Source: Candidatus Woesebacteria bacterium GW2011_GWC1_42_9
GTDB taxonomy: Bacteria; Patescibacteriota; Microgenomatia; UBA8517
Length of the DNA: 64,000 nucleotides
Direction: 5' to 3'
Assembly: GCA_000995185.1 (NCBI GenBank)
Contig: LCET01000001.1
Coordinates: forward strand, 29,327-93,326
Made by a program: the position numbers and the translations under genes. The notes under the pieces were generated by a model. That model was not told the origin of the DNA. It saw only the letters and a list, made by a program, of their open reading frames with translations, and searched no databases. Positions 18,543 to 45,940 of the stretch are shown here, piece after piece (positions within the stretch are counted from its first letter, which is position 1; every line of letters starts with the position of its first letter).

Positions 18543-20069
18543 TACATTGCCTTCTTTGTCCTTCACCACAATTATTCTGTCAACTTCCTTATTAAGTCTG
18601 ACTTCTTCAAGAGGCAGACTGGAAGGGGGTCCTACGAGAAGTGTGTCTTTTGCATATTCATCTTGCCTAAACCAATAGACATCTCGAAATTCATATTTAC
18701 CGAAATTAAAATCCTTTCTGCCTTTGGGATTGTCAGCAATTTTTTTGATCTCCTTTTGATATTTGTCTGGTGAATAATTTGAATAGAATAGAATGAAAAT
18801 ATGCGGCTGTGCAGTTCTGGTTTCAAAAATAATCCTGTTATAATCACCCTCCACCTTTGATGATTCAGTTATGATTTCCTTCATCCCGAATTGCCATGCA
18901 CCTTTGGACGTACCTGGAAAGATATAAGTGATACTACCTATTAGGTGGGTAAGAGACATTATTGTCAGCGGGACGATAAAAAGGAGAGCAAGTTTGTGGC
19001 GCGCAATGGAGACGAAGCCGATACTTATAATAATAGTAAAAAATACGAATAGAGGAAGGACTCTTGCTGGGTAAAACCAATTCCAAGTGAGAATTGCTGG
19101 TAGCGGTGAGATGATAGTAAGCAGGGCAAGGTTCTTATATTTTTTTGGATTTTTGATGATATTAATGATCCCTGCCACCCAGAAAAAAAACCAGAAACTA
19201 TAGAATTCTGCAAAACCCGATATTTGTTGTGTTGGCTCGCCAGTCCCTCTAACAAAGAGGTTTATTGGAGAAAAATAAGATAAATATCTCGAATAGATGG
19301 CGTTAACCAAACTTGACGGTGAAAGATCACTATTCCTTTTTAAAGCGTGATAAAGTGAAGTGGACGACATGCGGCTAGTGGTCTCGGGATTGTTAAAATA
19401 AATAATTGCAAGCGGAAGCAATGTCAAAAGAAACAGCAAAATAGTTTTTTGATTTTTCCTAATCAGAAAGTGATTTGTAAACATAAAAAGTATAAAAGTG
19501 ATTGGTGCAAGGATTTTTTCTGAGTGGTAAGAATATATGGAAAGTGAGAGCAGAAATACAGCCGACACGAGGTGCTTACCGGGAGACTTTGAGTTTATGA
19601 TAAGACAATAAACTCCAGCTAGATAAAAGAGAAGAGCTAAGTTCGCCTCAAATGCTGCCCTTGAAAAGAATATTGCCCAGGGTGATATTGAAATTGCGAG
19701 AGAAGCAAACATTCCGACAATTCGGTTATTAGTTAAATTCTTGGCGAGAAAGTAGGTGACTACTATGATCATGGTTCCAGAAAGAGAAGATAAGAGTCTC
19801 ACCGAGATTTCATTTAGACCAAGGAAATATATAAAAGGAATTGAAAAATAGGCGTAGGCAGAAGATTTATAGTCATCAAAAGACCTTAATAGTATTGGTA
19901 ATTTATATCCAAACTCATCTCTTCCAGTTTTGGACAGGGAATAGGAGTTATATCCGAGGGCAACTTCATCCCAGTTTAACGCAGGCGGAGAGTGATGAAG
20001 CCATAATGCTCTCAAGCCAAATCCAAGCAAAATAATTGACAAGAGGATTACTTTTGTATGCCTATCCAT
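18516..20069 (-). CDS. GT-C glycosyltransferase, PMT_2/ArnT-like, tandem paralog 3 of 8 (inverted orientation)
   Basis: 'NWDEVALGYNSYSL..TGRDEFGYKLPILLRSFDDYK', same architecture. Its 3' end overlaps the convergent upstream gene by 27 nt. Confidence 0.7.
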   Translation of the reverse strand: MDRHTKVILLSIILLGFGLRALWLHHSPPALNWDEVALGYNSYSLSKTGRDEFGYKLPILLRSFDDYKSSAYAYFSIPFIYFLGLNEISVRLLSSLSGTMIIVVTYFLAKNLTNNRIVGMFASLAISISPWAIFFSRAAFEANLALLFYLAGVYCLIINSKSPGKHLVSAVFLLSLSIYSYHSEKILAPITFILFMFTNHFLIRKNQKTILLFLLTLLPLAIIYFNNPETTSRMSSTSLYHALKRNSDLSPSSLVNAIYSRYLSYFSPINLFVRGTGEPTQQISGFAEFYSFWFFFWVAGIINIIKNPKKYKNLALLTIISPLPAILTWNWFYPARVLPLFVFFTIIISIGFVSIARHKLALLFIVPLTIMSLTHLIGSITYIFPGTSKGAWQFGMKEIITESSKVEGDYNRIIFETRTAQPHIFILFYSNYSPDKYQKEIKKIADNPKGRKDFNFGKYEFRDVYWFRQDEYAKDTLLVGPPSSLPLEEVRLNKEVDRIIVVKDKEGNVLAHIVGMK

Positions 20070-21322: not shown

Positions 21323-22975
21323 ATGGTTATGAATAAGATAGTTCTATTTGTGCTAGGATTGGCCTTTTTTCTTAGGATATATGGACTTAGTAATCATCCG
21401 GCAGGTTTCACTCCTGATGAAGCTTCATTTGGTTATGACGCGTATTCGATTTTGAGAACTGGTCGTGATCAATGGGGTAATTTCTTTCCTCTTAGCTTTA
21501 AATCTTTCGGAGACTACAAAATGCCTATATATGGGTATTTGACTATTCCTTCTGTTGCAATATTTGGATTAAATGAATTCGCCGTGAGGCTACCGAATGC
21601 CATTTTGGGCATACTTGCTGTATTGGGTACATATTTATTGGTTGATGAGGTTTTTAAAGACAAAAGGACCGCTTATTTGACAGCCTTTTTGTTAGCTGTC
21701 TCTTCATGGCATATTTCAATGTCTCGAGGAGCTTTTGAGGCCAACCTGACTACTTTTTTTATGCCTTTTGGAATATTTCTTTTTTATAAGGGGGTAAAGA
21801 ATTCGAAATATTTTATATGGTCGGCTACTTTTTTTGGCTTAAATCTTTTTACTTATCACTCAGCCCGCTTGGTTACTCCACTAATTGTGGGGTATTTAAT
21901 CGTAGATAATCGTGCAAATTTGAAATTGAGCAAAAAAATGAGATTCCCAATTGGAATTTTTGGACTATTTTGCATAGGCGCTTTGTATACATATCTTACT
22001 GGATCAGGGTCAAGGGCGGTTTCCGCTGGGATATTTAGTTTGGCAAGCAATGTTGGTGGTCAACGTTATGGTGCGGTTATGGTAGGGCTCCCGGATTTTT
22101 TGGCGAGAGTTTTTAATAATAAACTTACTTATCTTTTTTCTATTTTCTTGGGTAATTACGTATCGTATTTTTCCCCGCAGTTTTTATTTACACAAGGTGC
22201 TGGTGAAGGGACATATGGGATGCTCCCAGGTAGAGGTTTGCTTTATTTGATTGAATTGCCTTTACTAGTAGGATTTGTTTGGGGATGGGCATCCGGAAAA
22301 ATAAAGAAGGTTAACTGGCTTGTTGTTTGGCTATTGATAGCACCGGTTCCTGCGGCGTTGTCGATTGGTCCGGGATATGCAGCCAATCGTGCTGTAATTA
22401 TGATGCCGGCTATTTCGATTATTCTGGGCCTTGGCGGCGTACATGTTTTTAAGGAACTCGCGCGATATATTGATCAAAAAATATTAGTTTTCATCTATCT
22501 GTCTATGTTTTTGCTTGGTTTTGTCTTTTTCATTGAAGATTATTTTATTCAACAACCGTCTCGTGAGGCGAAGACGATGATCTATGGCCAGCGGGAATTG
22601 TTTGGCTATTTAGCTCAAATTGAGGGGGATTACCATCAAATAATTATTTCAAAAAAGATTTCTGAGGGACATGTTTATCTAAGTTTTTATAATGGATTTG
22701 ATCCAGCTGAATACCAATCAGAAATTAATTCGTGGGGTTTTGACGAAGGGAAATATAGTTGGGTTGATCAAATCCCAAAATATACTTTAGGAAAATTTGT
22801 GTTCCAGAATATAGATTGGTCATTTCATTCAAGGGTTCCACAGGTATTGTTAGTTGGTGAACCAGGTGAATTCCCTGAGTCCACAGAAGCCATCAAAAAA
22901 ATACTTTATCCAAACAAAACAGAGGCTTATTGGATAGTTGCTCCGACGCAAGAGCTTTATGCGAATAACAAATAA
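21323..22975 (+). CDS. GT-C glycosyltransferase, PMT_2/ArnT-like, tandem paralog 4 of 8
   Basis: 'TPDEASFGYDAYSI..TGRDQWGNFFPLSFKSFGDYKMP', same architecture. A TATAAT hexamer lies 4 nt upstream of the first ATG. A second ATG at 21329 is also possible. Confidence 0.7.
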   Translation: MVMNKIVLFVLGLAFFLRIYGLSNHPAGFTPDEASFGYDAYSILRTGRDQWGNFFPLSFKSFGDYKMPIYGYLTIPSVAIFGLNEFAVRLPNAILGILAVLGTYLLVDEVFKDKRTAYLTAFLLAVSSWHISMSRGAFEANLTTFFMPFGIFLFYKGVKNSKYFIWSATFFGLNLFTYHSARLVTPLIVGYLIVDNRANLKLSKKMRFPIGIFGLFCIGALYTYLTGSGSRAVSAGIFSLASNVGGQRYGAVMVGLPDFLARVFNNKLTYLFSIFLGNYVSYFSPQFLFTQGAGEGTYGMLPGRGLLYLIELPLLVGFVWGWASGKIKKVNWLVVWLLIAPVPAALSIGPGYAANRAVIMMPAISIILGLGGVHVFKELARYIDQKILVFIYLSMFLLGFVFFIEDYFIQQPSREAKTMIYGQRELFGYLAQIEGDYHQIIISKKISEGHVYLSFYNGFDPAEYQSEINSWGFDEGKYSWVDQIPKYTLGKFVFQNIDWSFHSRVPQVLLVGEPGEFPESTEAIKKILYPNKTEAYWIVAPTQELYANNK

Positions 22976-23595: not shown

Positions 23596-25212
23596 ATGAA
23601 AGGAATTCGTTTATGCCCACTGTTAATTGTCTTTATCCTAGCTTTTAGTTTTCGTTTCTATAAATTGTCTTCATATCCGGTTAGTCTATCTATTGATGAG
23701 GTGGGGTTTGGATACAATGCATATTCCATAATAAAAACGGGTAGAGATGAATGGGGGATGAAAATGCCATTAGTCTTTAGGGCGATAGGGGATTACAAGC
23801 CGGCAATCGATATTTATCTCACTGTGCCCTCGGTTTATCTTTTTGGTTTGACGGAATTTGGAGTAAGGTTCCCTACCGCACTGCTTGGCGCTTTAACTGC
23901 CGTAATCTTTGTAATGATTTTATTTGAGTTTGGGTTATCACGACCTGCGTCTATTCTTGGGGGTCTTTGGCTAGCGGTAAATCCTTGGCATGTACATTTC
24001 TCCAGGGGAAATTTTGAGGCCATCATCGCGCTTTTCTTTTTGCTAGTTGGGGTATGGAGTTTGCTTCGTTGGAATAAAAGTATGAAAAATAGATATTTAA
24101 GTTTGAGTGTAATGGCTTTTGCCTTGTCTGTTTGGAGTTATAACGCAGAACGGCTGTTCTCTCCCTTATTATTTTTAATCTTGAGCTTTCTGCTTAGGGG
24201 AAATTTGAGAGTTATAATTAGAAATCCCAAACTTCTTATCGCACCGTTAGTTATTTTACTTATCTTTATAACGCCGTATTTTTATCTAGGCTTTTTTACC
24301 GAAGCGATTAGATCTAGACCTTTATCAACATCCATTTTTCGAGAGGCAGGATTAATGGACTCCCTCCACAGAGGAACATATGTCAATTGGATAGAGAGAC
24401 TATTGGATAATGATATTTATTTAATTTTTAGGCATTGGGCGGGAAAATATTTGAACTATTTTGATCTAAGATTTTGGTTTTGGAAAGGAATGGGTTACAC
24501 CCAGCCTGGAGATCCTGATTTGGGGCTTTTTTACATTGTCGATGTAATCCCGATATTATCAGGGACATACCTCGTCTTTTCAAGTAAAAATAAATTATTT
24601 AGAGCCATTGCGGTCACCTGGTTATTTTTGGGCCCACTCCCGGCGTCATTAACAATGAACGAGCAACATACAATAAGATCTCTGACTTGGCTTCCTTTTT
24701 TTGGATTCGCTTATGCGAGTTCTATCGAGTTTGTAATTAAAAATGTTCGGAGATTGAGGACAATTTCTGTAGTATATTTTGCGTTGCTTGCTGTTAATAT
24801 TGCGTACTTCGCTAACTTATATTTTGTGCATTATCCAAAATACTATTCAGAGTATTGGCAATACGGGTACAAGGAAATAGCTCTTTATGCTTGTGGTCAC
24901 ATAGATGAGTATAATGAGGTTATCATTACCGACACTTTCGGTAGCTTGGGGCCCTTAAATACTGGTATTCCATACGCCTATGTTCTATTTTACTGTCAAT
25001 ACGATCCGAACACTTTTCTTGCAAATGGGAGGAGGATTTCGAAGATATCTTTTCGCAGGCCTGACTGGCCAAATGACTCACTGCAAAAAAATAGACTATT
25101 AATTGGTTCTCCCTGGGATTTAGATATTCAGGAAATCCCCATGGAGGCTATAATTAGAGTGACTTATTTTAAAAATAAACAAAGGTCATTTATTTATGCG
25201 GATACTAGATAA
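23596..25212 (+). CDS. GT-C glycosyltransferase, PMT_2/ArnT-like, tandem paralog 5 of 8
   Basis: 'SIDEVGFGYNAYSI..TGRDEWGMKMPLVFRAIGDYKPA'. Confidence 0.7.
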   Translation: MKGIRLCPLLIVFILAFSFRFYKLSSYPVSLSIDEVGFGYNAYSIIKTGRDEWGMKMPLVFRAIGDYKPAIDIYLTVPSVYLFGLTEFGVRFPTALLGALTAVIFVMILFEFGLSRPASILGGLWLAVNPWHVHFSRGNFEAIIALFFLLVGVWSLLRWNKSMKNRYLSLSVMAFALSVWSYNAERLFSPLLFLILSFLLRGNLRVIIRNPKLLIAPLVILLIFITPYFYLGFFTEAIRSRPLSTSIFREAGLMDSLHRGTYVNWIERLLDNDIYLIFRHWAGKYLNYFDLRFWFWKGMGYTQPGDPDLGLFYIVDVIPILSGTYLVFSSKNKLFRAIAVTWLFLGPLPASLTMNEQHTIRSLTWLPFFGFAYASSIEFVIKNVRRLRTISVVYFALLAVNIAYFANLYFVHYPKYYSEYWQYGYKEIALYACGHIDEYNEVIITDTFGSLGPLNTGIPYAYVLFYCQYDPNTFLANGRRISKISFRRPDWPNDSLQKNRLLIGSPWDLDIQEIPMEAIIRVTYFKNKQRSFIYADTR

Positions 25213-26878
25213 GCTAACAAGTCCCGGGGTATTGCTATCTTTGATAGTAATTAATGCGTTTATATTAAGGATTATATTTCTGGATAAAACTCCCCCCTCC
25301 CTTAATTGGGATGAAGTTAGCCACGGATATAATGCCTATTCTATATTGAAGACCGGGAGGGATGAATGGGGAAAGTCTTTTCCTCTTATTTTTCGGGCGT
25401 ATGGAGATTACAAACTACCGGTGTACATTTATGCGGTAGCGGTTAGCGAGTTCTTTATTGGTCCAAGTGAACTTGCAGTTCGATTGCCATCAGCATTAGC
25501 TGGCACATTCAGTGTTTTTTTTGTATACCTATTTACTTACGAGCTATATAAAAATAAAAAAGTTGCATTGTTTTCAGGGGTATTGGTGGCGATTGAACCA
25601 TGGGGATTATTCCTTTCTCGTATCGCCGTTGAAGCAAATCTCGCGCTAATGTTCATTATTTCTGGAGCATATTTTTATATCCGTGGTGTTAGGTTGAGAT
25701 CAAGTAGTATATTGATTGGAATCTCATTGTTAGGAATTTCTGCTTGGACTTATAATTCTGCTAGGATATTTTCTCCATTGTTTTTATTTGGTTTGGCTTT
25801 TATCTATCAAAGAGAAACAAAAGAATTTATTAAGAGAAGGGTGGCCAATCTTGTCCTCTCAATATTATTGATATGCGGTTTGTTTCTGACTATGTTTTGG
25901 CAATTGACCGCCTCAAGCGGGCTTGCACGATACGCCAACGTCCAGATAATAAATGATGGAGCTATTTCTAGGATCGTTGAATCTAGAAATACATCGGAAC
26001 TCCCGGGAGTTTTACCTAGGGTAGTCTATAACAAGGGAACATTCTTCGTTAACGAATACGTAAGAAATTATATATCACATTTTTCACCCACTTTTTTATA
26101 TCTTAAGGGTGGATCGCATTATCAATTTAATATCCCAAATTTTGGACTCCTTTACCTAGTTAATGCGCCTTTTTTGCTCATAGGTATTTTGCATTTAATC
26201 AAAAATAGAAATGTGAGCAGTAAAGTTTTATTGTTATGGATTATAATTGCTCCGATTGCCGCAAGTTTTACTCGCGAATCTCCGCATGCCTTAAGGTCAA
26301 TACTAATTATTCCTATTCCTATGATTTTATCGGCACAAGGGATAATAGTTTCTTGGGAAAGTCTAAAAAATAATCAAAACAGGATGATATTTATGCTACT
26401 TTATTTAGTATTGTTATCTATTTCTGCATATAGTTTTTTAATCAGATACTTAGACTATAAGGATAAGTATTCGTGGGCATGGCAGTATGGGAACAAAGAA
26501 ATGGTCGACTACGTACGAGAAAATTACAATAATTATGACAAGATAATCATTTCTAAAAAATATGGAGAGCCGCACGAATTTTTATTATTTTACTGGCCTT
26601 GGAGACCAGATGTGTACCAAAACGACCAAAAACTTATCCGTTTTTACCAATCAAATTGGTATTGGGTCGATCAGTTTGACAAGTTTTATTTTGTAAATGA
26701 TTGGGATATACCAAACGATTCATCTATGCTGACTTTGGAGAGCGGCAAGGAGGTTGATTGCACAATAGGTAAGTGTTTATTGGTAAGTAGCCCTGAAAAA
26801 AACCTGCACGGATGGGATAAGGTTTATTCAATCAATTTTTTAGATGGTTCAAGAGCGTTTGATATTTATGAAAACTAA
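25196..26878 (+). CDS. GT-C glycosyltransferase, PMT_2/ArnT-like, tandem paralog 6 of 8
   Basis: 'NWDEVSHGYNAYSI..TGRDEWGKSFPLIFRAYGDYKLP'. Confidence 0.7.
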   Translation: MRILDKLTSPGVLLSLIVINAFILRIIFLDKTPPSLNWDEVSHGYNAYSILKTGRDEWGKSFPLIFRAYGDYKLPVYIYAVAVSEFFIGPSELAVRLPSALAGTFSVFFVYLFTYELYKNKKVALFSGVLVAIEPWGLFLSRIAVEANLALMFIISGAYFYIRGVRLRSSSILIGISLLGISAWTYNSARIFSPLFLFGLAFIYQRETKEFIKRRVANLVLSILLICGLFLTMFWQLTASSGLARYANVQIINDGAISRIVESRNTSELPGVLPRVVYNKGTFFVNEYVRNYISHFSPTFLYLKGGSHYQFNIPNFGLLYLVNAPFLLIGILHLIKNRNVSSKVLLLWIIIAPIAASFTRESPHALRSILIIPIPMILSAQGIIVSWESLKNNQNRMIFMLLYLVLLSISAYSFLIRYLDYKDKYSWAWQYGNKEMVDYVRENYNNYDKIIISKKYGEPHEFLLFYWPWRPDVYQNDQKLIRFYQSNWYWVDQFDKFYFVNDWDIPNDSSMLTLESGKEVDCTIGKCLLVSSPEKNLHGWDKVYSINFLDGSRAFDIYEN

Positions 26879-28493
26879 CAAGTATTTGGTTGCTATTGTA
26901 GTTTTATCTTTAGTTTTAAGGGTGTGGGATTTGGGAAATATCCCACCTCATTTGTCAAGCGATGAAGCTTCGTTAGGATACAATGCCTATTCAATTCTGA
27001 AAACTGGACGGGATGAATACGGTAAGTTGTTTCCAATCATTTTTAAGTCATTCGGCGATTATAAGCCTGGTTTGTATATTTATTTCTCAGTACCAGTCGT
27101 TGCAATTTTAGGATTGACGGAATTTGCAATCAGATTACCAAGTGCAATTATGGGGGGCGTTGCGGTTGTATTGGTATATTTTTTATCAAAAAATATTCTG
27201 AATTCACGAAAGATGGGGTTATTTACTGCGTTTGCGTTATCTATTAACCCGTGGCATATTCATTTTTCACGAGGGGCGTGGGAAGCAAATTTAGCGTTTA
27301 CCTTAACAATTGCAGGAATACTCGCTTTTCTTTTATCTTTTGAGAAGCGTAAATGGCTCTATATGTCGGCGTTGTTTTTTGGTTTAACACTGGTTGCATA
27401 TCAGGGAGCAAAATTAACATCACTTATCAGTTTAGTTGCTCTTATTCTTATATATTTCAAGGATTTGAAACAAATTGATAAACAAACTTTGGCAGGGAGC
27501 TTTTTTGTAGGGCTAATTATATCTTCACCGATAATTTACAGTTTCTTTGTAGGCCAGACAGGTAGACTTGAAGTTTTTAGCATTTTTTCTTATCCGAGAG
27601 AAAGTTGGTATGTAGATAAATTATTAAGTGAAGGGGAGGAACAGAGAGGTAGTGCAAGTTACTTGCTTTATCATTCAGAACTTTTAAGTTTTTTTCAAGG
27701 GATAGTAGGGAGATGGTTTAATCACTTTTCGGGAAGATTTCTATTTTTTCAGGGTGATTGGGAAAATTCTCGGCATGGCATACCAGGATTGGGGCAACTC
27801 CTTTTTGCAGATCTATTAGCGCTCTTGATCGGAACTTTTTATTTGATAAAAAGTAAGAGTATTGCAACAAAGAGTAAATTATTATTAATGATGTTGTTTT
27901 TGTTATCTCCGCTACCGGCTGCGCTTTCTCGCAGTCAGGTGAACGCGGTAAGAAGCATGAATATGATATTGCCTCTGGTAATTATCTTGGGGATTGGGAT
28001 GAACTATATGTTTGCTCAAAAAAGATGGGTATTTTTATATTTCGCAATGTATATATTTTCTTTTATTTACTTTGTAGATGCTTACTTCGTGCACCTCCCT
28101 GTTCATAATGTTCGGTCGTGGAATTGGGGGTATCGAGAAATGGTTAATTATGTATTAATCGTTGAGTCTGATTATGATGAAATTCAAATTCAACAAAGTT
28201 ATCGGCAGCCATACATATATTTCTTATTTTACGGAGGATATGATCCTTCTAGTTATCAAAAAACATCTCATTTATTAGAAAATGAGTTTGGAGATGTGGG
28301 GCTAGTCGAAAGTTTTGATAAATATGTTTTTAAGTCTATAAATTGGCCGGTTGGAGAGACCGATAAAAGGATCTTGTATATTGGGGACGAAGTAACGATC
28401 GCTCGTGAGCTTGGTTCATCAAAAAATTACGTTTTAGAAAAAGAGATTAAATATTTAGATGGGACAACCGCTTTTATGGCAATTCATGATTAA
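26868..28493 (+). CDS. GT-C glycosyltransferase, PMT_2/ArnT-like, tandem paralog 7 of 8
   Basis: 'SSDEASLGYNAYSI..TGRDEYGKLFPIIFKSFGDYKPG'. I prefer the ATG at 26868 (MKTNKY..), which overlaps the upstream stop by 11 nt. The ORF could also start at 26844. Confidence 0.7.
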   Translation: MKTNKYLVAIVVLSLVLRVWDLGNIPPHLSSDEASLGYNAYSILKTGRDEYGKLFPIIFKSFGDYKPGLYIYFSVPVVAILGLTEFAIRLPSAIMGGVAVVLVYFLSKNILNSRKMGLFTAFALSINPWHIHFSRGAWEANLAFTLTIAGILAFLLSFEKRKWLYMSALFFGLTLVAYQGAKLTSLISLVALILIYFKDLKQIDKQTLAGSFFVGLIISSPIIYSFFVGQTGRLEVFSIFSYPRESWYVDKLLSEGEEQRGSASYLLYHSELLSFFQGIVGRWFNHFSGRFLFFQGDWENSRHGIPGLGQLLFADLLALLIGTFYLIKSKSIATKSKLLLMMLFLLSPLPAALSRSQVNAVRSMNMILPLVIILGIGMNYMFAQKRWVFLYFAMYIFSFIYFVDAYFVHLPVHNVRSWNWGYREMVNYVLIVESDYDEIQIQQSYRQPYIYFLFYGGYDPSSYQKTSHLLENEFGDVGLVESFDKYVFKSINWPVGETDKRILYIGDEVTIARELGSSKNYVLEKEIKYLDGTTAFMAIHD

Positions 28494-30093
28494 GAAATAT
28501 AATTTATTATTAGTTGGAATTTTTGCTTTGGGATTGGTGTTGCGGCTATATCAACTAGGGAATTATCCTGCATTAAATGCCGACGAGGCAGCGCTTGGGT
28601 ATAATGCATACTCTCTATTGGAGACCGGTAAAGATGAACATGGAAACAGTTGGCCTATTCATTTCCAGTCCTTTAATGATTATAAGCCGGGACTGACAGT
28701 ATATTTGATCCTGCCGTTTGTGAAATTATTTGGGTTAAATATTTGGTCAGTAAGAATATTCCCAATGTTTCTGAGCTCTCTCACCATTCTTGCAATATAT
28801 TACCTAGTACAAGAACTTTTTAGTAACAGGAGATTTTCATTATTATCGGCATTGTTTTTATCTATTAGTCCATGGCATATTCATTTCTCTCGTGGTGCCT
28901 GGGAAGTGAGCATTGCGACATTTTTTATGACCTTCGGAATGTGGTCTTTTCTCCGCGCCCGATCATCCCCAAAATTATATTTATTGAGCGTTTTGGTGTT
29001 TGCAGCGTCGTTATACACTTATCATTCCGCCCGTTTAGTTACCCCATTGTTAGGGTTGGGATTATTGGTTTTCCAATACAAAAATATGTTGAACGACAAG
29101 GCGATTATTGGGTTATCAATTGGACTGGGTATTATAGTCTTAACCCCACTAATATTGGATTTGATGGGTCCAGCAGGTATTTCGCGTGCCTCAGGCGTAG
29201 GAATTACAGCTGATATGGGCACAGTTTCCCGAATTAATGAACAAAGAGGAGAACACGCAAACCAAGATGGCTTGTGGACAAAAGCACTCCACAATAAATT
29301 AGTGAATTTTGGTTTAGTCTTTACTAAAAATTGGAGTGATCATTACTGGGGAGAGTTTTTATTTAATTCTGGTGATGAGATCCAAAGAAATAAAGTACCT
29401 GAAATGGGGCAAATGTATATATTTGACATTATTTTTATTTTGATAGGGTTTGCCGGAATTGTAAAATTAAAAGTCAAAAATAATTGGAAACTTGTCATTT
29501 GGTGGCTTATTGTTGCCCCAGTTGCCTCCGCTTTAACCTTTCAATCTCCTCATGCTCTTCGCGCACATAATATGGTTATTCCGATGGTTATTATTAGTGC
29601 TTACGGGTTTTCGGTAATGATGAATAGAATCCATAGAGTAGGATTAATTTTGTTTATTGTTTTGATTGTTTTGGGTGTTAGCCGTTATCTTCATTTGTAT
29701 TGGGTACATACCGCGAAAGCGTATCCATATTCTTCTCAATATGGTGTGAGTGAATTAGTCGGGTATTTATCGGGGAAGACTGGTGAGTACAAAAAGATAT
29801 TGGTTACAGACAGATATGATCAGCCGTATATATTGTTTCTATTTTATTCTAAATTTCCTCCAGAAAAGTTTCAGCAAGAACATGTATTAACTGATAGGGA
29901 CAGGTTTGGATTTTCGACTGTCAGGGAGTTTGGGAATTATCATTTTGAGAGAATAGATTTTGAAAAAATTAGGGGTAGTTCTTCGGATAGTCTAATAGTG
30001 GGGACCTCTAAGGAAATCCCGTCGGATGCGAATATAGTTAAAACGATAGCTTTCCCAAATGGGGAAGATGCCTTTAGAGTAGTTGAAAACTGA
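28486..30093 (+). CDS. GT-C glycosyltransferase, PMT_2/ArnT-like, tandem paralog 8 of 8
   Basis: 'NADEAALGYNAYSL..TGKDEHGNSWPIHFQSFNDYKPG'. The ATG at 28486 (MIKKYN) overlaps the upstream TAA. Confidence 0.7.
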   Translation: MIKKYNLLLVGIFALGLVLRLYQLGNYPALNADEAALGYNAYSLLETGKDEHGNSWPIHFQSFNDYKPGLTVYLILPFVKLFGLNIWSVRIFPMFLSSLTILAIYYLVQELFSNRRFSLLSALFLSISPWHIHFSRGAWEVSIATFFMTFGMWSFLRARSSPKLYLLSVLVFAASLYTYHSARLVTPLLGLGLLVFQYKNMLNDKAIIGLSIGLGIIVLTPLILDLMGPAGISRASGVGITADMGTVSRINEQRGEHANQDGLWTKALHNKLVNFGLVFTKNWSDHYWGEFLFNSGDEIQRNKVPEMGQMYIFDIIFILIGFAGIVKLKVKNNWKLVIWWLIVAPVASALTFQSPHALRAHNMVIPMVIISAYGFSVMMNRIHRVGLILFIVLIVLGVSRYLHLYWVHTAKAYPYSSQYGVSELVGYLSGKTGEYKKILVTDRYDQPYILFLFYSKFPPEKFQQEHVLTDRDRFGFSTVREFGNYHFERIDFEKIRGSSSDSLIVGTSKEIPSDANIVKTIAFPNGEDAFRVVEN

Positions 30094-37383: not shown

Positions 37384-37412
37384 TTGATTTTCTAATATCT
37401 GAGAATGATAAT
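37384..37412 (+). promoter_or_regulatory. candidate sigma70-like promoter (TTGATT, 17 nt spacer, TGATAAT) giving a near-leaderless transcript for the downstream ORF
   Basis: TTGATT at 37384-37389 and GATAAT at 37407-37412, preceded by TG, with a 17 nt spacer. The predicted TSS falls 3-4 nt before the ATG at 37423. In AT-rich DNA this could be chance. Confidence 0.25.
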
Positions 37413-37971
37413 CAATGGAGCGATGTTTAGCCGTATTCATAAAATAATTATAATCTTTCTCTTTTTTGCTTTCTCATTTATTGCCTTGGGTGCGGGGTTA
37501 GCGGGAGCAAAGGGAGAGGCAGTCGAAGAGCCCAAAGTTACTAACGTTAATTCGTATGAACTTTTTTGGCCGTTGGTGGCGGGCAAAACTAAAGGAGAGT
37601 CGCTCTATTCGTTGAAGCTTTTTAAAGAGAAGGCGCGGGGGGCACTAATTTTTGGTGCTTTTAAGAAAGTTGATTACGAGGTCTTTCTGGCCACAAAAAG
37701 AGTAATTGAGGCAGAGAAGTTGCTTAACTCTGGGAAACAAGACTTAGCAAATGAGTCTCTCAATTTGGCCGCAGTCCATCTAGAAAATGCACAAAAGAAG
37801 ATGGAGGACATGGGAAATGAATATAAAGTCAAAGCTAAGGTCGATGAGGTCAATAATAAACTTAATAATTTGGAAACATTCTTATCTTGGTTGACGCCTC
37901 AATATGAGGTCTCCTCCGATGAGATTAAGGAGGTTCTTGTTAGGGTTCAAGATCTTAACCAAAAGATCTAG
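37405..37971 (+). CDS. secreted or membrane-anchored hypothetical protein (coiled-coil rich)
   Basis: An N-terminal hydrophobic signal/anchor 'IIIIFLFFAFSFIALGAGLAGA' is followed by a charged, helix-forming sequence. No known domain. The start may be the ATG at 37423. Confidence 0.5.
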   Translation: MIINGAMFSRIHKIIIIFLFFAFSFIALGAGLAGAKGEAVEEPKVTNVNSYELFWPLVAGKTKGESLYSLKLFKEKARGALIFGAFKKVDYEVFLATKRVIEAEKLLNSGKQDLANESLNLAAVHLENAQKKMEDMGNEYKVKAKVDEVNNKLNNLETFLSWLTPQYEVSSDEIKEVLVRVQDLNQKI

Positions 37972-38024: not shown

Positions 38025-40004
38025 GTGATGCGAAATAATTTTTGTGGTTTGATTGTCGCTTTAAGTTTTTTTGTTGTTAGTGTCTTCACTCTTTCGGATT
38101 ATGGGATTAATGTTGATGAGCCAGCTCACTTCATACGCGGTCAGGCTTACGCCGAGTTTTTATTAACAGGAAGAAAGACTTATTTGGCGAAAGATCTAGA
38201 GTCATCTAGAGTCAGCGCGTGGAAACTTCCGCTTTATGATGGGTACTTTTATATGGAGAGAGACACTGGCCATCCGCCTTTAAATGGCATTTTGGCGGCA
38301 CTAACAAACAGGGTTTTCTATGAAAAATTTGGGATATTTGGAGACCTAGAGTCATATCATTTATTTGAAGTTTTTGTTTCAAGTCTTCTGGTTCTTCTGG
38401 TTTATGTTTTTACTTCCCGGCATTATGGTCAGTTTGCTGGAGTCATTGCGGCTTTATCAATTAGTCTGTATCCGCTCTTTTTTGGTGAATCACATTTTAA
38501 TATTAAGGATCCTGTTGAGACTACTTTTTATGCCTTCACTCTCTATTTTTTCTATTGGGGGCTTGAAAAAAACCAAGGACGCTTTTTTTTGGCATCCAGC
38601 CTTTTTTTTGCATTAGCTTTAGGTACAAAATTTAATATTTTATTCTTGATACCTACTATTTTTCTTTATTTAGTGATATCCCATTACCCTATCAAAAGGA
38701 TTTCCATTCAAGTTTGGGTTAGCTTGATAGCCTACCCTGTGATAGTTTTGACGATATATTTTTTAACCAGACCTTATTTCTGGGCTGATCCGATTGGTCG
38801 TTTTTTTGAAACCTATCAGTATTATCATGAGATGGGTACTGGCGGGTTTTCGGATAGCCGGTTTTTAATAGGCAAATGGAATACTTATCCTTTAGTTTTT
38901 GTAATAGTTTCCACTCCTCTTGTTATTCTTTTCTACTCACTAGTTGGAATTATTTCAGGCTTATTGGGGGAGAGAAAAGATAGGAAGAAATTTTCAATCA
39001 TGATTTTTTTGTGGCTAACAATCCCTATTGTACGGGTTTCGTTGCCCGGGATGTCAATTTATAGCGGTGTTAGACAAATTATGGAATATATTCCCGCGAT
39101 GGCGATCTTTGCAGGACGAGGTGCTTTAGCTGTAAAAGAGTTACTGCCTAAGCGTATTGGCGACGGGTTTTCGAATGCTTTGATATTAGCTAGCTTTGTT
39201 CCTCTTCTTTTAACACTTATTAGATTACATCCGAATGAAAATGTGTTTATTAACTCATTGGTGGGTGGTTTGTCTGGAGCAGTAGAGAAAAGGATTCCAG
39301 GGGCGGGCGAGAGCATGGGTAATGTATACCTTCAGGGAATATGGTGGCTTAATGAGAATGCGCCAGATGACGCTCATTTTGGATTACCTGTGGGACTTAA
39401 GTCAAACGTCCCAGATCAATACTTAGAAAGAGGGATCGGAGTGGGTCCATACTTTTCAGGAATGAGCAGAGATGGTGAGTATATGATGGAAAAGATTTCT
39501 GTTGGCCAGCCAATAAATCCCAATCTTTATAATTTTGCTTATTTAGAGAGATTTTTAGATCCAGTTTACGAAGTTAAAGTAGATGGTGTTACGCTTTTGA
39601 AAATTTGGCAAAATGATGATGCTCACACCAGATCTGGTTTCATTAGTGAAGAGGAAATTAATTATCATATGACTATTGATGAAAACAAAGATTTTCGATT
39701 TGACTTTGACAAACCCCGCCAGCTAACAAGACTGGAAATAGATCACTCTTCATATAATTGCGAGCTTGATGCGAAAGGAGTGATTAGCTACTCGGCCGAT
39801 GGTGCTTCAGGGATTATTTCTGGTGATCTTTATTCCCTTCAAGGGCCATATGCAAGTTCTTTGAGGACAAACTCGCACCATGTTTATTTTTTTGCCGCCG
39901 AAGAAGCCAAATGGGTTAAAGTATCAATTAGTACGAAGAATTCTTGCATAGCGCGGATCGATCAGGTAAAGATATTTGGACTAGAAAATATCAAAAGTGA
40001 ATAA
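38025..40004 (+). CDS. GT-C PMT_2-like membrane glycosyltransferase fused to a C-terminal discoidin/galactose-binding-like domain
   Basis: 'YGINVDEPAHFIRGQAY' DE motif and a TM-rich core of about 450 aa. The C-terminal segment of about 150 aa, 'LTRLEIDHS..AKWVKVSIST', resembles F5/8 type C. A candidate extended -10 sequence (TGATATAAT) lies 8 nt upstream. Confidence 0.6.
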   Translation: MMRNNFCGLIVALSFFVVSVFTLSDYGINVDEPAHFIRGQAYAEFLLTGRKTYLAKDLESSRVSAWKLPLYDGYFYMERDTGHPPLNGILAALTNRVFYEKFGIFGDLESYHLFEVFVSSLLVLLVYVFTSRHYGQFAGVIAALSISLYPLFFGESHFNIKDPVETTFYAFTLYFFYWGLEKNQGRFFLASSLFFALALGTKFNILFLIPTIFLYLVISHYPIKRISIQVWVSLIAYPVIVLTIYFLTRPYFWADPIGRFFETYQYYHEMGTGGFSDSRFLIGKWNTYPLVFVIVSTPLVILFYSLVGIISGLLGERKDRKKFSIMIFLWLTIPIVRVSLPGMSIYSGVRQIMEYIPAMAIFAGRGALAVKELLPKRIGDGFSNALILASFVPLLLTLIRLHPNENVFINSLVGGLSGAVEKRIPGAGESMGNVYLQGIWWLNENAPDDAHFGLPVGLKSNVPDQYLERGIGVGPYFSGMSRDGEYMMEKISVGQPINPNLYNFAYLERFLDPVYEVKVDGVTLLKIWQNDDAHTRSGFISEEEINYHMTIDENKDFRFDFDKPRQLTRLEIDHSSYNCELDAKGVISYSADGASGIISGDLYSLQGPYASSLRTNSHHVYFFAAEEAKWVKVSISTKNSCIARIDQVKIFGLENIKSE

Positions 40005-41181
40005 AGCTTTGAAAGTAATATTTGTTACATCAACCTTTTCTTTTAAGAAAAATGACTCATTGGTGCCTTGGATGAGAAGATTAGTTGTGGAACTTAGGTC
40101 TGGAGGAGTAGACATAAAAGTACTTGCCCCGGCCGTGAAGGGTTCCCCTAGTCACGAAGTTTCAAAGATACCGGTTTATCGGTTCCGATATGCCCCCGCT
40201 TCGCTTGAAATTTTGACTCAAGATGAAGGGGCAGTAACCAAGATTCACAATAACCCATTTTTAGCTTTATTGGCAGTTCCTTATATTTTTTTTGGGACAA
40301 TTGCTGGGATACGCCGGTCAATCGGGGCTCACTACGACGTAGTTCATGTGAATTGGCCTTTCCCGCTTGGGATTATAGGATTAATAATAAAATGGGTAAG
40401 TGGTGCCAAATTAGTGCTTACTTTTTATGGAGCGGAGTTTGTGCTAGTGAACAAATTTCCTTTTGGAAAATTAATCTTGGCATTTATCATCAAGAGAGCA
40501 GACAAAGTAATTGCGATTTCTAGTCACACCAAAGCAATGGTTCAACAAATTGCTGACGTGGATGTGTCGGTCATTCCATTCACTTCAGGAATTCAGATAA
40601 CAGCGCCCAAGAGTATTAACCGAAAGCAATCTAGGACTAAACGTATTTTGTTCGTTGGCCGATTGATTGAACGTAAGGGAGTGAAATATTTGGTTGATGC
40701 AATTCCGGACGTACGCGGATCAATGAAAGTAGAGGTTGACATCGTGGGCGGTGGACCTCTTATTACTGAGCTTAAGAAACAAACTAATAGAAAAGGGTTA
40801 AATAACACAGTGACGATTCATGGGAAAGTTAGTAAAGATAAGTTAAAGAAACTATATTTGATGAGTGATGTTTTTGTTTTGCCTGCCATTATTGACCAGT
40901 GGGGAGACACAGAAGGACTGGGGGTAGTGCTTCTTGAGGCGATGAGTATTTCCAAGCCTGTAATTGCCAGTAAAGTCGGAGGGATAACTGATATTGTTAA
41001 ACATAATAAAACTGGTTATTTAGTACCGGAGAAGAATTCTCCAGCACTATCCAAAGCTTTAGTTAAAATTCTAAGTGATCAAAAGCTAGCGAATAGGTTG
41101 GCTAAATCAGGCCAGCAATTTGTCCAAGAAAAGTTTGACTGGAACGTGATCATTAAGCGGACATTAAAAATATATCAATGA
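39997..41181 (+). CDS. family 4 glycosyltransferase
   Basis: 'LFVGRLIERKGVKYLVDA' and 'EGLGVVLLEAMSISKPVIAS'. Confidence 0.8.
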   Translation: MNKALKVIFVTSTFSFKKNDSLVPWMRRLVVELRSGGVDIKVLAPAVKGSPSHEVSKIPVYRFRYAPASLEILTQDEGAVTKIHNNPFLALLAVPYIFFGTIAGIRRSIGAHYDVVHVNWPFPLGIIGLIIKWVSGAKLVLTFYGAEFVLVNKFPFGKLILAFIIKRADKVIAISSHTKAMVQQIADVDVSVIPFTSGIQITAPKSINRKQSRTKRILFVGRLIERKGVKYLVDAIPDVRGSMKVEVDIVGGGPLITELKKQTNRKGLNNTVTIHGKVSKDKLKKLYLMSDVFVLPAIIDQWGDTEGLGVVLLEAMSISKPVIASKVGGITDIVKHNKTGYLVPEKNSPALSKALVKILSDQKLANRLAKSGQQFVQEKFDWNVIIKRTLKIYQ

Positions 41182-43208
41182 GGTCGGTCAAGAAGAAGTC
41201 CATTTTGGCTGCCCTTATTTTTTTTGTAGCCGGTGTAATCACATTACCTCATTATGGAATTAATTGGGATGCAATTAATCATCTTTCTCGCGGTCAGGCC
41301 TACTTAAATTATTTCCTAACTGGGAGTGAAGATTTTTCTAATAGACCACCTTATTTTGACAATTGGCCAGAGCCGGGCGATGACGGCGGGTGGTATTTAC
41401 AGAATCCGGATAATCTTTTCTTCGACCCTGACCGCCCCAAGGAAGAGGTTAGTCCAAGGAGTATGTATGAACTGCCCACTCTAACAATGGCTCTATATCG
41501 AAATAGTGATGGCGGTCACCCGCCTTTGTCAGATATATTATCCTCACTTTTTAATCGAATTCTTTTTGGAGAATTGAGACTTATCAATGATATTGATGCT
41601 TACAGAATATATGGTGTATTGTTGGCGGCTTCCTTAGTAGGTCTTATTTTTTATTGGGTTAGTGAAATATATGGAGGTTTTGCTGGGTTAATAGCGGCAT
41701 TGTCTCTTTCTCTTTATCCCCTTTTTTGGGCTGAAAGCCATTTCAATACAGAAAAAGATGTACCAGAGACCGTGTATTGGTCATTTTTAATGTTTACAAT
41801 ATGGAAGGGAGTAGAGACAAAAAAATGGCAGTGGATATTATCCTCTGGAGTATTTTTTGGACTAGCACTGGGAACAAAATTTAATGTACTTTTCGCCATT
41901 CTAGTAATTATCCCTTGGTTAGCTCTTACTTCTAGAAAATTAATCATGCAAAAGTGGTTTCTTGTTTCTGGAACCACAGCATTATTAATTGGTCTTATGA
42001 TCTTTGTAGGCTCCTGGCCATATCTATGGGGAGATCCAATCATGCGAATCTCAGAAGTGGGTAATTTTTATAAAACGATCGGCACATCACCAAGAAATCA
42101 CATACTTAACATCTATCCATTGGAATGGATATTTTATACAACACCAATTGCTTTTCTCATCCTTTTTGCTACTGGGATATATGGGTGTGTTAAAAGAATT
42201 TTTGCTGATCAAGATAAGGTCACTTTACTTTTTTTATTTTGGCTAATTGTCCCCATTGGCCGGGTTGTGTGGCCTGGAACTGTAGTTTATGGCGGCATTA
42301 GGCAGGCGATGGAGTATATTCCGGCTTTTTGTGTCTTTGTAGGTATTGGCGCACAGGCTGTCAGGATGCGACTTAATAATCTATTTGGGACCGCGATTGT
42401 TTTATTGATGTTTATCCCCATCACCCTAAAGCTGATTGAGATTCATCCGAATGAAAACGTGTATTTCAATCAATTAATTGGAGGTTTGGCGGGAGCAAAA
42501 AAGCACAATTTTCCTTATTGGGGATTTTCTTTCGGTGCTCCTTATCGCCAGGGTGCCAATTGGCTTAATGAAAATGCTCCTATGGGAGCAGATGTAGCGT
42601 ACTCATATGAATTAATTCCAAATTTGCCAAGGATTTTTTTGAGGAGGGATTTGAATTTGCATAATATAAACCGCAGTGGTTATTTGAGAAACGGTGAGTA
42701 TGCGATGACTTTAACTTACCAAGGGACGGCAGAGCGCTCTTATTACGATATGTATCTTGAGAAGTTTATCGATCCAGTTTATCAGGTTACTATTGACGGG
42801 GTAGCCATTTTTAAAATTTGGAAGAATGATAGCGAGCATTTAAAATTTAATTGGAGTGAAAAATTATCTAACGAAGCCAAAGTTCAAAAGGAAAACAATC
42901 GCTTGATTTTTGATTTATCTGAGCCTCGTCCACTGTCACGATTGGAGATCGACTATTCGGAAGAAAATTGCTCTCTTATGAATGAGGGATATGTCCAAAT
43001 TTCAGTGGATGGAAATAAATGGCAAAGACTACCTGGGATCCTCAGTGAAGAGGAGGCCAAAATACCTGCTCTTGGTCCACAGCCGAAAAATGGTCATTTT
43101 ATCGAACCGTTTGTAGGGCAAGAAGCTAGGTTTATTGAAATCAAGATGCCTGAGAAAACTTGCCTTGGAAACTTGCGTCATTTTGATATATATTATTTTG
43201 ACCTATGA
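41178..43208 (+). CDS. GT-C PMT_2-like membrane protein fused to a discoidin-like domain; paralog of 38025..40004 with an altered catalytic-motif position (DA instead of DE)
   Basis: It is collinear with the ORF at 38025 ('YGINWDAINHLSRGQAY' against 'YGINVDEPAHFIRGQAY'; shared 'IHPNENV..N.L.GGL.GA'). The C-terminal 'LSRLEIDYSEENCSL...ARFIEIKM' is discoidin-like. Confidence 0.6.
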   Translation: MRSVKKKSILAALIFFVAGVITLPHYGINWDAINHLSRGQAYLNYFLTGSEDFSNRPPYFDNWPEPGDDGGWYLQNPDNLFFDPDRPKEEVSPRSMYELPTLTMALYRNSDGGHPPLSDILSSLFNRILFGELRLINDIDAYRIYGVLLAASLVGLIFYWVSEIYGGFAGLIAALSLSLYPLFWAESHFNTEKDVPETVYWSFLMFTIWKGVETKKWQWILSSGVFFGLALGTKFNVLFAILVIIPWLALTSRKLIMQKWFLVSGTTALLIGLMIFVGSWPYLWGDPIMRISEVGNFYKTIGTSPRNHILNIYPLEWIFYTTPIAFLILFATGIYGCVKRIFADQDKVTLLFLFWLIVPIGRVVWPGTVVYGGIRQAMEYIPAFCVFVGIGAQAVRMRLNNLFGTAIVLLMFIPITLKLIEIHPNENVYFNQLIGGLAGAKKHNFPYWGFSFGAPYRQGANWLNENAPMGADVAYSYELIPNLPRIFLRRDLNLHNINRSGYLRNGEYAMTLTYQGTAERSYYDMYLEKFIDPVYQVTIDGVAIFKIWKNDSEHLKFNWSEKLSNEAKVQKENNRLIFDLSEPRPLSRLEIDYSEENCSLMNEGYVQISVDGNKWQRLPGILSEEEAKIPALGPQPKNGHFIEPFVGQEARFIEIKMPEKTCLGNLRHFDIYYFDL

Positions 43209-45001: not shown

Positions 45002-45940
45002 TTATAATTCTTGATCTATGAAGTTTACATCCCGGCCCTTTTTTTGGCTTAAGTTGACGATCATTTCTGCCACAAGTCCGGTGGTAACAAGCTGAATACC
45101 AATAATCATCAGGAGTATGCCGAAAAATAAAAGCGGGTGTCGGTACTGGATGCTTCCTGTGGCAATCCTTAAGTAGGTGATATATAAACCTATCATAAAA
45201 CCAGACGAAAAAAGAATTATACCCCACGTTCCAAAAAAGTGAGCCGGCCTTTTTAAATATACCGTGAGAAAAACAATGGTTATCATATCTAGAAAGCCCT
45301 TCATGTTCCTTTCCCAGCCAAATTTGCTTTGACCATATTTTCTTTTATGGTGTTTGACAATAACTTCTGAAACTTTGAAATTTTGTTTTTCTGCCAAAAC
45401 GGGAATATATTTGTAGAGTTCACCATAAAGATTAAGATTTTCTATTACTTCTCGTCGGTAAACTTTATATCCACAGTTTAAATCGTGAATAGAGATCCCT
45501 GTTAGTAGTCTAGTGGCAAAATTACCAATTTTAGAGGGGAGTGTTTTGCTAATTGGATCATAACGTTGTTTTTTCCACCCGGAAACCAGATCGTAACCTT
45601 CTTCTAGTTTATTTAATAACTTTGGTAATTCCGCAGGGTCGTCTTGCAAGTCGGCGTCCATTGTGACAACTATTTTGCCCCTTGATCTTTCAAAGCCAAC
45701 TTGTAAAGCCGTAGATTTACCAAAGTTGCCACGTAGCTTAATAACTTTCACTTTGTTGTTTTTTTTGGTTAATTTAGAGAGGACTTCGAATGTTGTGTCT
45801 GTGGAGCCATCGTCAATAAATATTATTTCATAGGTCTTCCTTGTTTTTGAGATTACCTCGAGTATTTTTTTGTATAGTTTTTCGACTGATTTTTCTTCAT
45901 TTTTGGCCGGGATGATGAAGGATAATTCAACTTTATTCAT
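45002..45940 (-). CDS. polyprenol-phosphate sugar synthase, GT2 with C-terminal TM helices (GtrB/ArnC/DPM1-like)
   Basis: 'LSFIIPAKNEEKSV...IIFIDDGSTDTT', 'TMDADLQDDP' and 'IHDLNCGYKVYRR'. Two C-terminal TM helices give the classic GtrB/ArnC architecture. Confidence 0.8.
   Translation of the reverse strand: MNKVELSFIIPAKNEEKSVEKLYKKILEVISKTRKTYEIIFIDDGSTDTTFEVLSKLTKKNNKVKVIKLRGNFGKSTALQVGFERSRGKIVVTMDADLQDDPAELPKLLNKLEEGYDLVSGWKKQRYDPISKTLPSKIGNFATRLLTGISIHDLNCGYKVYRREVIENLNLYGELYKYIPVLAEKQNFKVSEVIVKHHKRKYGQSKFGWERNMKGFLDMITIVFLTVYLKRPAHFFGTWGIILFSSGFMIGLYITYLRIATGSIQYRHPLLFFGILLMIIGIQLVTTGLVAEMIVNLSQKKGRDVNFIDQEL

Follow-up and report, generated by a model that had tools for sequence, protein, structure and literature searches.

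Two neighbouring genes in a 64,000-nucleotide stretch of the genome of Candidatus Woesebacteria bacterium GW2011_GWC1_42_9 (hereafter the window) encode related glycosyltransferases of the GT-C type that differ at the first-loop motif, where the upstream copy (A) carries Asp-Glu and the downstream copy (B) Asp-Ala. A preliminary description of the locus suggested that loss of the glutamate has left B inactive, turned it to a regulatory or acceptor-binding role, or altered its catalysis, and the question raised by the locus is whether the absence of this residue carries any such meaning. The features concerned, with positions counted from the first letter of the window, are:

37405..37971, plus strand, DUF5667 protein, conserved locus member (PF18915 E 5e-12, synteny)
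38025..40004, plus strand, copy A, GT-C glycosyltransferase, 659 aa, GTG start (PF13231, AF2, Foldseek)
38115..38120, plus strand, D31-E32 codons of copy A, gat gag (first-loop motif)
39642..40001, plus strand, CBM32/discoidin-like beta-sandwich of A, ~aa 540-659 (AF2 strands 542-653)
39997..41181, plus strand, GT4 glycosyltransferase, GT-B fold, cytoplasmic (PF00534 E 1e-42, PF13439)
41178..43208, plus strand, copy B, GT-C glycosyltransferase with the architecture of A, 676 aa, ATG start
41268..41273, plus strand, D31-A32 codons of copy B, gat gca
41751..41759, plus strand, E192-K193-D194 of B in loop 2, gaa aaa gat
42840..43205, plus strand, CBM32/discoidin-like beta-sandwich of B, ~aa 555-676
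45002..45940, minus strand, ArnC/GtrB/PgfS-like GT2 polyprenyl-phosphate glycosyltransferase (NCBIfam)

The two proteins are collinear paralogs, as had been proposed, and can be aligned over their full length with 36% identity and 53% positives (BLASTP, E 3e-136), a sequence similarity far above chance. The codons given for the first-loop dipeptide were likewise read correctly, gat gag encoding D31-E32 in A and gat gca D31-A32 in B. Among the motifs listed earlier as common to both copies, YGIN.D....H..RGQAY, GHPPL and L(T/S)RLEID.S..NC are indeed found in each, but IHPNENV occurs only in B, the corresponding sequence of A being LHPNENV. The gene between them does encode a GT4 enzyme, as its PF00534 match attests, and overlaps the stop of A by 8 nt and the start of B by 4 nt.

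Both proteins match the PMT_2 family (PF13231, gathering score 26.1), A with 57.6 bits (E 2e-15) and B with 53.9 bits (E 3e-14). The AF2 model of A (pLDDT 95.0, pTM 0.93) consists of a membrane module of ~11 TM helices, a periplasmic alpha/beta domain and a CBM32/discoidin-like beta-sandwich, and its Foldseek matches include STT3, ArnT, PglB, Pmt4 and CBM32. The multi-span membrane module can be superposed on solved GT-C structures of class A (ArnT/PMT/STT3-like), and the beta-sandwich fits CBM32/discoidin structures, that of A matching 5xnr and 4a42. The fusion of a GT-C enzyme to a discoidin/CBM32-like domain that had been noticed from the sequence is therefore present in both copies, and the C-terminal domain contains an invariant Cys pair (C579/C641 in A, C598/C662 in B). 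In Pfam searches PF00754 remained below its gathering score of 28.2, with 16.3 bits (E 0.011) in B and no match in A; some homologs (P0073, P0101, P0221) carry a precomputed match. The soluble part is C-terminal, and neither Pfam nor the models gave a MIR domain (beta-trefoil) in A or B. The NCBIfam ArnT model is matched by neither protein. A and B are GT-C glycosyltransferases of the PMT_2/ArnT-like type and belong to a family that is of an ordinary GT-C kind and uncharacterised; a literature search for a GT-C/CBM32 family in Patescibacteria returned nothing relevant.

D31 comes immediately after TM1 in both AF2 models, where it N-caps the first loop helix (32-48). Direct mapping to solved structures was marginal: searches of PDB sequences with the HMMER family profile left the motif uncovered (TMEM260, E 0.05; Pmt2, E 0.63; ArnT 5ezm, E 0.99, short of an equivalog-level likeness to ArnT), and hhalign comparison of the family profile with a CtPmt4 fragment aligned HPPL and misplaced the N-terminus (probability 1.3%). 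Equivalence of the motif was therefore assessed through transitive profile alignments via ArnT-like paralogs encoded elsewhere in the window, together with the position after TM1. The D31-x32 dipeptide aligns to the DE of these paralogs (hhalign, probability 96.4%), which in turn aligns, in a weak leg (E 0.15-0.45), to the FDEVHFG motif of Pmt4. As judged from these alignments, the dipeptide corresponds to the "DE" motif of PMTs and ArnT, and the earlier assignment of the GT-C first-loop catalytic site is upheld; the Glu that directly follows the catalytic Asp in the PMT clan is present in A and missing from B. A set of 115 sequences from both clades shows no variation at four further positions: H114 (in HPPL), D194 (at the N-terminal end of TM4), K234 (following TM5) and R375 (preceding TM10). 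Equivalence of H114 to the PMT-clan motif derives from hhalign alignments via the ArnT-like paralogs and Pmt4. D194, K234 and R375 are the probable equivalents of ArnT D158, K203 and the loop-5 Arg (PMC7801869), a correspondence made by helix position in the AF2 model, which is coarser than a residue-level structural alignment. The remaining mapped residues for catalysis and ligand binding are as invariant in B as they are in A.

Conservation of the two motif residues is very uneven. Across 314 family sequences D31 never varies, and it is found in 115 of 116 representatives of 50%-identity clusters, whereas the residue that follows is Glu in 52 of these representatives, Ser in 28, Ala in 18 and Thr in 8, so that 64 of the 116 lack Glu. 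Position 32 has changed ~11 times on a UPGMA tree. Within the B clade (n=138) it is never Glu, being Thr in 118 members, Ala in 16, Ser in 2, and Ile and Val in 1 each, and a further 16 family members outside this clade also lack Glu. Orthologs of the 41178 copy are thus uniform in lacking the glutamate but not in carrying DA. The 14 closest homologs of B all have D-T, for example TGG GAT ACG in a sister genome (L004), and the Ala32 codon of the window is a single-nucleotide variant of the Thr that is the norm in the clade. Replacement of Glu by Ala in B is, on these alignments, ordinary variation within the family, at a position where an acidic residue is not required, and carries no mark of inactivation.

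The surroundings of the two genes differ in how far they are conserved. The order GT4, B-type GT-C and, on the opposite strand, ArnC-like GT2 recurs across Microgenomates; in most related loci the GT4 gene is immediately upstream of the B-type gene, with which the GT2 gene is also syntenic. The GT2 protein of the window matches the NCBIfam ArnC model over nearly its full length (E 5e-54, below the equivalog cutoff) and the PgfS model (E 5.5e-40), and likely supplies the lipid-phosphate-sugar donor. Sites conserved only within one clade number ~25 in B versus 3 in the A group. By synteny and conservation, B is the conserved core gene of a Microgenomates glycan locus and A the optional copy.

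These observations bear on the proposal that B is a catalytically dead, regulatory or acceptor-binding pseudo-enzyme that assists A. Such a role would be in keeping with the missing canonical Glu and with the tightly overlapping operon formed by A, GT4 and B, and the DE pair has been called indispensable in yeast PMT by some of the literature: in a secondary account (PMC7801869), replacement of either D77 or E78 of Pmt1 is said to abolish function, E78 positioning D77 through a salt bridge. These reports indicate that the Glu matters in some GT-Cs. In Streptomyces coelicolor Pmt, however, E114A complements fully and D113A does not (PMC8698208). B moreover retains every other invariant active-site residue, its clade is more conserved than the A group, variants without Glu account for over half of the family diversity, and B-type genes always occupy the locus core beside the donor synthase. 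Of the 19 B loci flanked on both sides by 8 kb or more, 12 contain no partner from the family within 10 kb. A pseudo-enzyme is accordingly highly improbable, and the reading of Glu loss as a sign of inactivity, regulation or altered catalysis finds no support. Within this Patescibacteria family of GT-Cs the so-called "DE motif" is in fact a "D-x" motif, and a missing Glu is therefore unfit for calling pseudo-enzymes.

The distribution of partners is equally relevant to the idea that the two proteins are obligate partners in a heterodimer that pairs a canonical with a variant active site, like yeast Pmt1-Pmt2. PMTs are known to function as dimers (PMC12705809), and A and B are adjacent and co-oriented both in the window and in L004, a B-type gene also adjoining an A-type gene in L002, L014, L024 and L026. 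Nevertheless, a second family member is missing from the vicinity of most B loci, and the partners that do occur come from four different subclades, vary in position and orientation, and in two cases carry D-S rather than D-E; the complete chromosome CP066686.1 (L064) has an A-type match and no B-type match among the 80 of 144 genome hits covered. A fixed A/B partnership was rejected on these grounds, and obligate heterodimerization is considered very unlikely.

A further difference between the clades is found in loop 2, where B has HFNTEKD and A has HFNI-KD (38505-38510), the K-D pair being invariant family-wide. The single residue inserted in B, E192, is peculiar to the B clade, in which it is 98% conserved, and is absent from 121 of 121 A-type sequences. 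It is conceivable, though rather unlikely, that B is active with a remodelled site in which the role of E32 has been taken over by E192; the resulting E-x-D recalls the DxD/ExD loop-2 motif of oligosaccharyltransferases and could entail changed metal or donor handling. An x-E-K-D sequence is carried by 136 of the 154 members without Glu32 among the 314 sequences, and the whole B motif has been reshaped, from D-E-P-x-H to D-[TA]-[IV]-N-H, with N34 94% conserved. D194 would also be the helix-position equivalent of ArnT D158 and of CtPmt4 D197, the latter lying beside the first-loop Asp and positioned for Mn2+ (PMC12705809; PMC7801869). The association between loss of Glu32 and insertion of E192 is, however, essentially a single evolutionary event at the B clade. 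The insertion is missing from the 16 non-B sequences without Glu32 and from ~60 of the 64 non-Glu cluster representatives, Gln replaces the inserted Glu in two members of the B clade, and three D-E members likewise have a one-residue insertion at this place (V-Q-K-D). Strict compensation, with every loss of E32 accompanied by the insertion, was rejected as a general rule because the non-B sequences without E32 have none, and it is unlikely that, within the B clade, E192 has changed the active site from the "DE + D" layout of PMT/ArnT to a "D + ExD" layout resembling that of OST. Were relocation of the carboxylate true, it might mark a change in metal dependence or in donor/acceptor chemistry within one GT-C family.

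The best explanation is probably that A and B are both active extracytoplasmic GT-Cs, B the core enzyme and A an accessory one, with the Glu difference being ordinary variation. Paralogy, fold, motif position, conservation and synteny are shown by the analysis, whereas donor, acceptor, activity and the way in which the two copies share the work are inferred. The donor would be a polyprenyl-phosphate sugar, of which the ArnC-like GT2 (45002-45940) is the probable synthase and which would be flipped to the outer face of the membrane, the dependence of A and B on such a donor being predicted from the synteny of the ArnC/PgfS-like gene with B. From this donor, both enzymes would pass the sugar on to a glycan or glycoconjugate at the cell surface, with the invariant Asp31 after TM1 as the putative acceptor-activating residue and the C-terminal periplasmic domain and CBM32-like module as candidates for holding the glycan acceptor. 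B (D-T/A type) would serve as the core enzyme of the glycan-assembly locus, and A (D-E type), present as an accessory paralog in some genomes, is most likely used for a different decoration, acceptor or linkage.

The locus appears to represent a conserved, uncharacterised surface-glycan assembly line in Microgenomates, a group for which we know of no cultured representatives. As its probable core extracytoplasmic transferase, the B-type GT-C/CBM32 protein is a reasonable first target for learning about Microgenomates cell-coat glycans. The natural variants of the family, with E, S, A or T at position 32 and with or without the loop-2 Glu, also provide material with which the role of the second motif residue can be probed.

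ArnT (GT83; Cupriavidus metallidurans 5ezm/5f15), the undecaprenyl-phosphate-L-Ara4N:lipid A transferase, has only ~14% identity to A and B. It possesses 13 TM helices, whereas ~11 are counted from the AF2 helices of the A/B family, in which, moreover, the first loop is much longer, a CBM32-like domain is added at the C-terminus and the second motif residue varies. Patescibacteria are not known to make LPS, and the acceptor of A and B is therefore almost certainly something other than lipid A.

The GT39 PMTs (yeast Pmt1/2/4, CtPmt4 and bacterial Pmt), to the solved members of which the family has a marginal HMMER likeness (E 0.6), differ in several respects. Eukaryotic PMTs have a lumenal MIR domain between TM7 and TM8, in place of which A and B have the C-terminal alpha/beta and CBM32 module, and the two proteins bear no sign of a protein Ser/Thr acceptor. 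The DE motif has been described as invariant in PMTs (PMC12705809), whereas in the A/B family only the Asp is.

Adjacency of a GtrB/ArnC-like GT2 gene to a GT-C gene recalls the three-component systems of the GtrA/GtrB/GtrC type (GT2, flippase and GT-C), as does the putative catalytic Asp beside TM1, a placement also proposed for ORF12, the founder of GT136 (PMC11127046), although no dedicated small GtrA-type flippase was identified adjoining B, and the Microgenomates locus is far larger, with many GT-Cs. In its overall architecture the family resembles mycobacterial EmbC and AftD, which likewise combine a polyprenyl-phosphate-sugar-dependent GT-C domain, a dependence that is predicted for A and B, with extracytoplasmic carbohydrate-binding modules. 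AftD and Emb are among the Foldseek matches, and in enzymes of this type the carbohydrate-binding modules hold the growing glycan (PMC3044687).

Two paralogous ORFs, A (D31-E32) and B (D31-A32), flank a GT4 gene on the forward strand:

38025..40004 (+), A, a 659-aa ORF with a GTG start
39997..41181 (+), the GT4 gene (PF00534, E 1e-42)
41178..43208 (+), B, a 676-aa ORF

This placement had been given in the preliminary description, together with the GT4 gene and the collinear paralogy of A and B, and all three were borne out: A and B share 36% identity (E 3e-136) in an alignment that spans the entire length of both. The codons reported for the two motifs are likewise present, gat gag at 38115-38120 (A) and gat gca at 41268-41273 (B). 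The shared motifs quoted for the pair occur in both proteins except IHPNENV, which is the form in B and reads LHPNENV in A. With overlaps of 8 nt and 4 nt between neighbours, A, GT4 and B constitute one compact and probably co-translated unit; the GC content of the window is ∼37%. A sequence identical to B is on record (P0001, from Candidatus Woesebacteria bacterium GW2011_GWB1_43_14). The homolog search that returned it contained no sequence identical to A, for which the best match had 69% identity; A begins GTG ATG, and the deposited gene call may use another start or be missing.

Both proteins match Pfam PMT_2 (PF13231) far over threshold, and very confident AlphaFold2 models from 115-sequence alignments (pLDDT 95.3 and pTM 0.94 for B, 95.0 and 0.93 for A) gave similar Foldseek results, in agreement with the earlier description of the pair as GT-C/discoidin fusions. 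By sequence alone, the discoidin domain (PF00754) is sub-threshold in B (E 0.011) and gives no Pfam match in A. An invariant Cys pair in the C-terminal tail (C598/C662 in B, C579/C641 in A) and a basic N-terminus preceding TM1 are consistent with a topology in which the tail would be extracytoplasmic.

The D-E and D-A pairs had been assigned to the GT-C first-loop motif, with which all of the indirect lines of evidence, comprising transitive profile alignments and the position of D31 after TM1, agree. In both models D31 is the N-cap residue of the first loop helix and lies ∼10 residues past TM1. Aligned at 96.4% probability with a profile of eight ArnT-like paralogs from the window, the A/B family profile pairs GINW-D-E-P-x-H with the D-E that is invariant in the paralogs, and GHPPL with their D-Y-K-P-P. 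The D-E of the paralog profile falls on FDEVHFG in ScPmt4 and CtPmt4, and the K-P-P of this profile on K-P-P in CmArnT; these matches are weak (E 0.01-0.45) but exact at the motif. The CtPmt4 residues concerned, F83-D84-E85-V86-H87 as numbered from the aligned fragment, have been assigned to acceptor binding (PMC12705809). Further landmarks of the PMT clan are an Asp at the TM4 N-terminus, a Lys after TM5 and an Arg before TM10 (PMC7801869); B carries D194 (TM4 N-terminus), K234 (past TM5) and R375 (ahead of TM10), which are invariant in both clades and, judging from helix position in the model, are probably equivalent to the ArnT residues.

Average-linkage clustering of 242 family sequences first split them into 121 that group with B (the B clade; DT 106, DA 11, DS 2, DI 1, DV 1, DE 0) and 121 A-type sequences (DE 117). 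In a set enlarged to 314 sequences with genome-derived members, the expectation that orthologs of B consistently carry DA held as regards the missing Glu (0/138 B-clade members) but not as regards Ala, since Thr is the usual residue at position 32 (118) and Ala is found in 16. All 14 nearest relatives of the window's B read D-T, and the codons GAT GCA of the window are GAT ACG in the sister genome, so that the window's Ala is one nucleotide from the Thr typical of the clade. Position 32 in the B clade tolerates T, A, S, V and I, and its side chain therefore has no essential role. Sixteen non-B members of the enlarged set also have S, A, T or D there; on a UPGMA tree, switches between Glu and another state number ∼11 by Fitch parsimony. 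When 1.84 billion cluster representatives were searched exhaustively by profile, 1,074 proteins were recovered at E <= 1e-30; of 116 new representatives in which both motif columns are aligned, 115 have the Asp, followed by E in 52, S in 28, A in 18, T in 8 and, more rarely, N (3), D (2), G (2) or F (2). From this spread the family motif is YG(I/V/M)NW-D-x, and on these alignments Glu is no hallmark of the family. By analogy with published mutants, the Glu is not always required: in Streptomyces coelicolor Pmt, E114A gives full complementation and D113A does not, and DE mutants of Mycobacterium tuberculosis Pmt have lowered but not abolished activity (PMC8698208); yeast Pmt1 is reportedly more sensitive to changes in the motif (PMC7801869). 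The proposal that loss of the Glu altered catalysis in B is thus not upheld, as position 32 varies family-wide, B is constant at its locus (see below) and E114A is functional elsewhere (PMC8698208). The DA of B is ordinary variation.

Loop 2 of the B clade contains a one-residue insertion, a Glu (E192 in B) that is 98% conserved and directly adjoins the invariant K-D (HFN-T-E-K-D in B vs HFN-I-K-D in A). By helix position, D194 of this K-D would be the counterpart of ArnT D158 and of CtPmt4 D197, which is adjacent to the first-loop Asp and positioned for Mn2+ (PMC12705809, PMC7801869), so that the carboxylate lost from loop 1 could have its substitute in the inserted Glu, which would yield an OST-like E-x-D. 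Such compensation is unlikely, and three observations speak against it as a rule: ∼60 of 64 non-Glu cluster representatives are without the insertion, two B members have Gln in its place, and in three D-E members the insertion at this site is an unrelated one (V-Q-K-D).

Loci fetched around B-type genes were examined jointly with 71 from GTDB species representatives, the genome search covering 80 of 144 matches. The gene order kept in Microgenomates is GT4, PIG-V-like GT-C, Wzx-like flippase, GT2, GT4, DUF5667, in many cases a methyltransferase, and then GT4, B-type GT-C, ArnC/GtrB-like GT2 on the opposite strand and a further GT2. The GT2 in the window is:

45002..45940 (-), ArnC-like GT2 (ArnC model E 5e-54 over nearly full length; PgfS E 5.5e-40)

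Among 19 B loci with >=8 kb on either flank, 12 are without a second family member; in the other seven the partners belong to four different subclades, are found on either side of B and in either orientation, and carry D-S in two cases. Since partners are absent or varied, it is B that stays constant and the DE copy that is accessory, the reverse of what is predicted if B were a degenerate second copy. Conserved clade-specific positions number ∼25 in the B clade vs 3 in the more diverse A group; those of B are spread over loops 1 and 2, the periplasmic domain and the CBM, a distribution that would fit a single conserved acceptor.

The DUF5667 protein (37405-37971, +), with an N-terminal anchor and a helical region, is a conserved locus member also found in L001-L029, where its gene usually follows the second GT4 and precedes the GT4/B-type pair; the protein could serve as the substrate for glycosylation, or act in assembly or in setting chain length. 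A putative radical-SAM-like protein, by sequence reading (47852-49459, -; 535 aa), is strongly conserved in the glycan locus of L004, L011, L012 and L023 (phmmer 644-731 bits). Some Gottesmanbacteria/Microgenomates genomes (L030 5333-11977, L031, L034, L040) carry A-type genes in tandem, two or three copies each, and lack a B-type; in L030, L031 and L034 one copy apiece combines D-E with the loop-2 Gln insertion (V-Q-K-D). Many MAG records titled 'uncultured Gammaproteobacteria bacterium' (e.g., L010 OZ246419.1, L011, L012, L015) contain a Microgenomates-type locus with full synteny, and these titles look like mislabels.

The 64-kb window encodes at least 14 GT-C-like genes. Besides A and B, its membrane proteins of GT-C or polymerase-like type include:

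5950-8412, YfhO (E 3.5e-27)
11450-12715, EpsG-like (sub-threshold)
13511..15205, 15701..17275, 18516..20069(-) and 21323..22975, ArnT/PMT_2-like paralogs 1-4
23596..25212, 25196..26878, 26844..28493 and 28459..30093, ArnT/PMT_2-like paralogs 5-8
17250-18542, PIG-U-like
32003-33151, PIG-V/Mannosyl_trans2-like (via orthologs in L001/L003)
58716-60899, 727-aa PMT/PMT_2 protein with 'HPDEP'

The eight ArnT/PMT_2-like paralogs (13511-30093; 517-564 aa, 27-35% mutual identity), five of them in a head-to-tail run, all have the first-loop motif 'DE..GY.AYS', and the array is unusually dense for a small CPR genome. A 505-aa membrane protein (8409-9926, +), with no match in Pfam or NCBIfam, has 'FGYDQARDAY' past TM1, in which the residue next to a GT-C-like first-loop Asp is Gln, not Glu. 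The window's second membrane-protein/discoidin fusion, unrelated to A/B, is an 880-aa multi-span protein (60896-63538, +). Its F5/8 type C domain gives a strong match (PF00754 E 2e-15, aa 638-749), and at its N-terminus 'VWKDDN' follows the first hydrophobic segment.

Alongside the observed fold, motif conservation and synteny, we infer a mechanism, with its donor, acceptor and activity, in which cytoplasmic GT4 and GT2 enzymes would assemble a lipid-linked glycan for export by the flippase, and the ArnC-like GT2 would load a sugar onto polyprenyl phosphate. Outside the membrane, the B-type GT-C would then pass this sugar to the exported glycan or glycoconjugate, with D31 activating the acceptor hydroxyl, the D194-K234-R375 set binding the donor and the CBM32-like module holding the acceptor glycan. 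A would perform an analogous reaction with another acceptor or linkage.

The literature search found no paper on the A/B family, and NCBI labels its homologs 'glycosyltransferase family 39 protein' or 'ArnT family glycosyltransferase'. As they have no NCBIfam ArnT match, A and B are not ArnT equivalogs; nor are they PMTs, because the MIR domain is absent and DE is not invariant. They represent a new family among known kinds of GT-C, one that by analogy probably works like ArnT or PMT-type enzymes and resembles the GT-C/CBM fusions EmbC and AftD.
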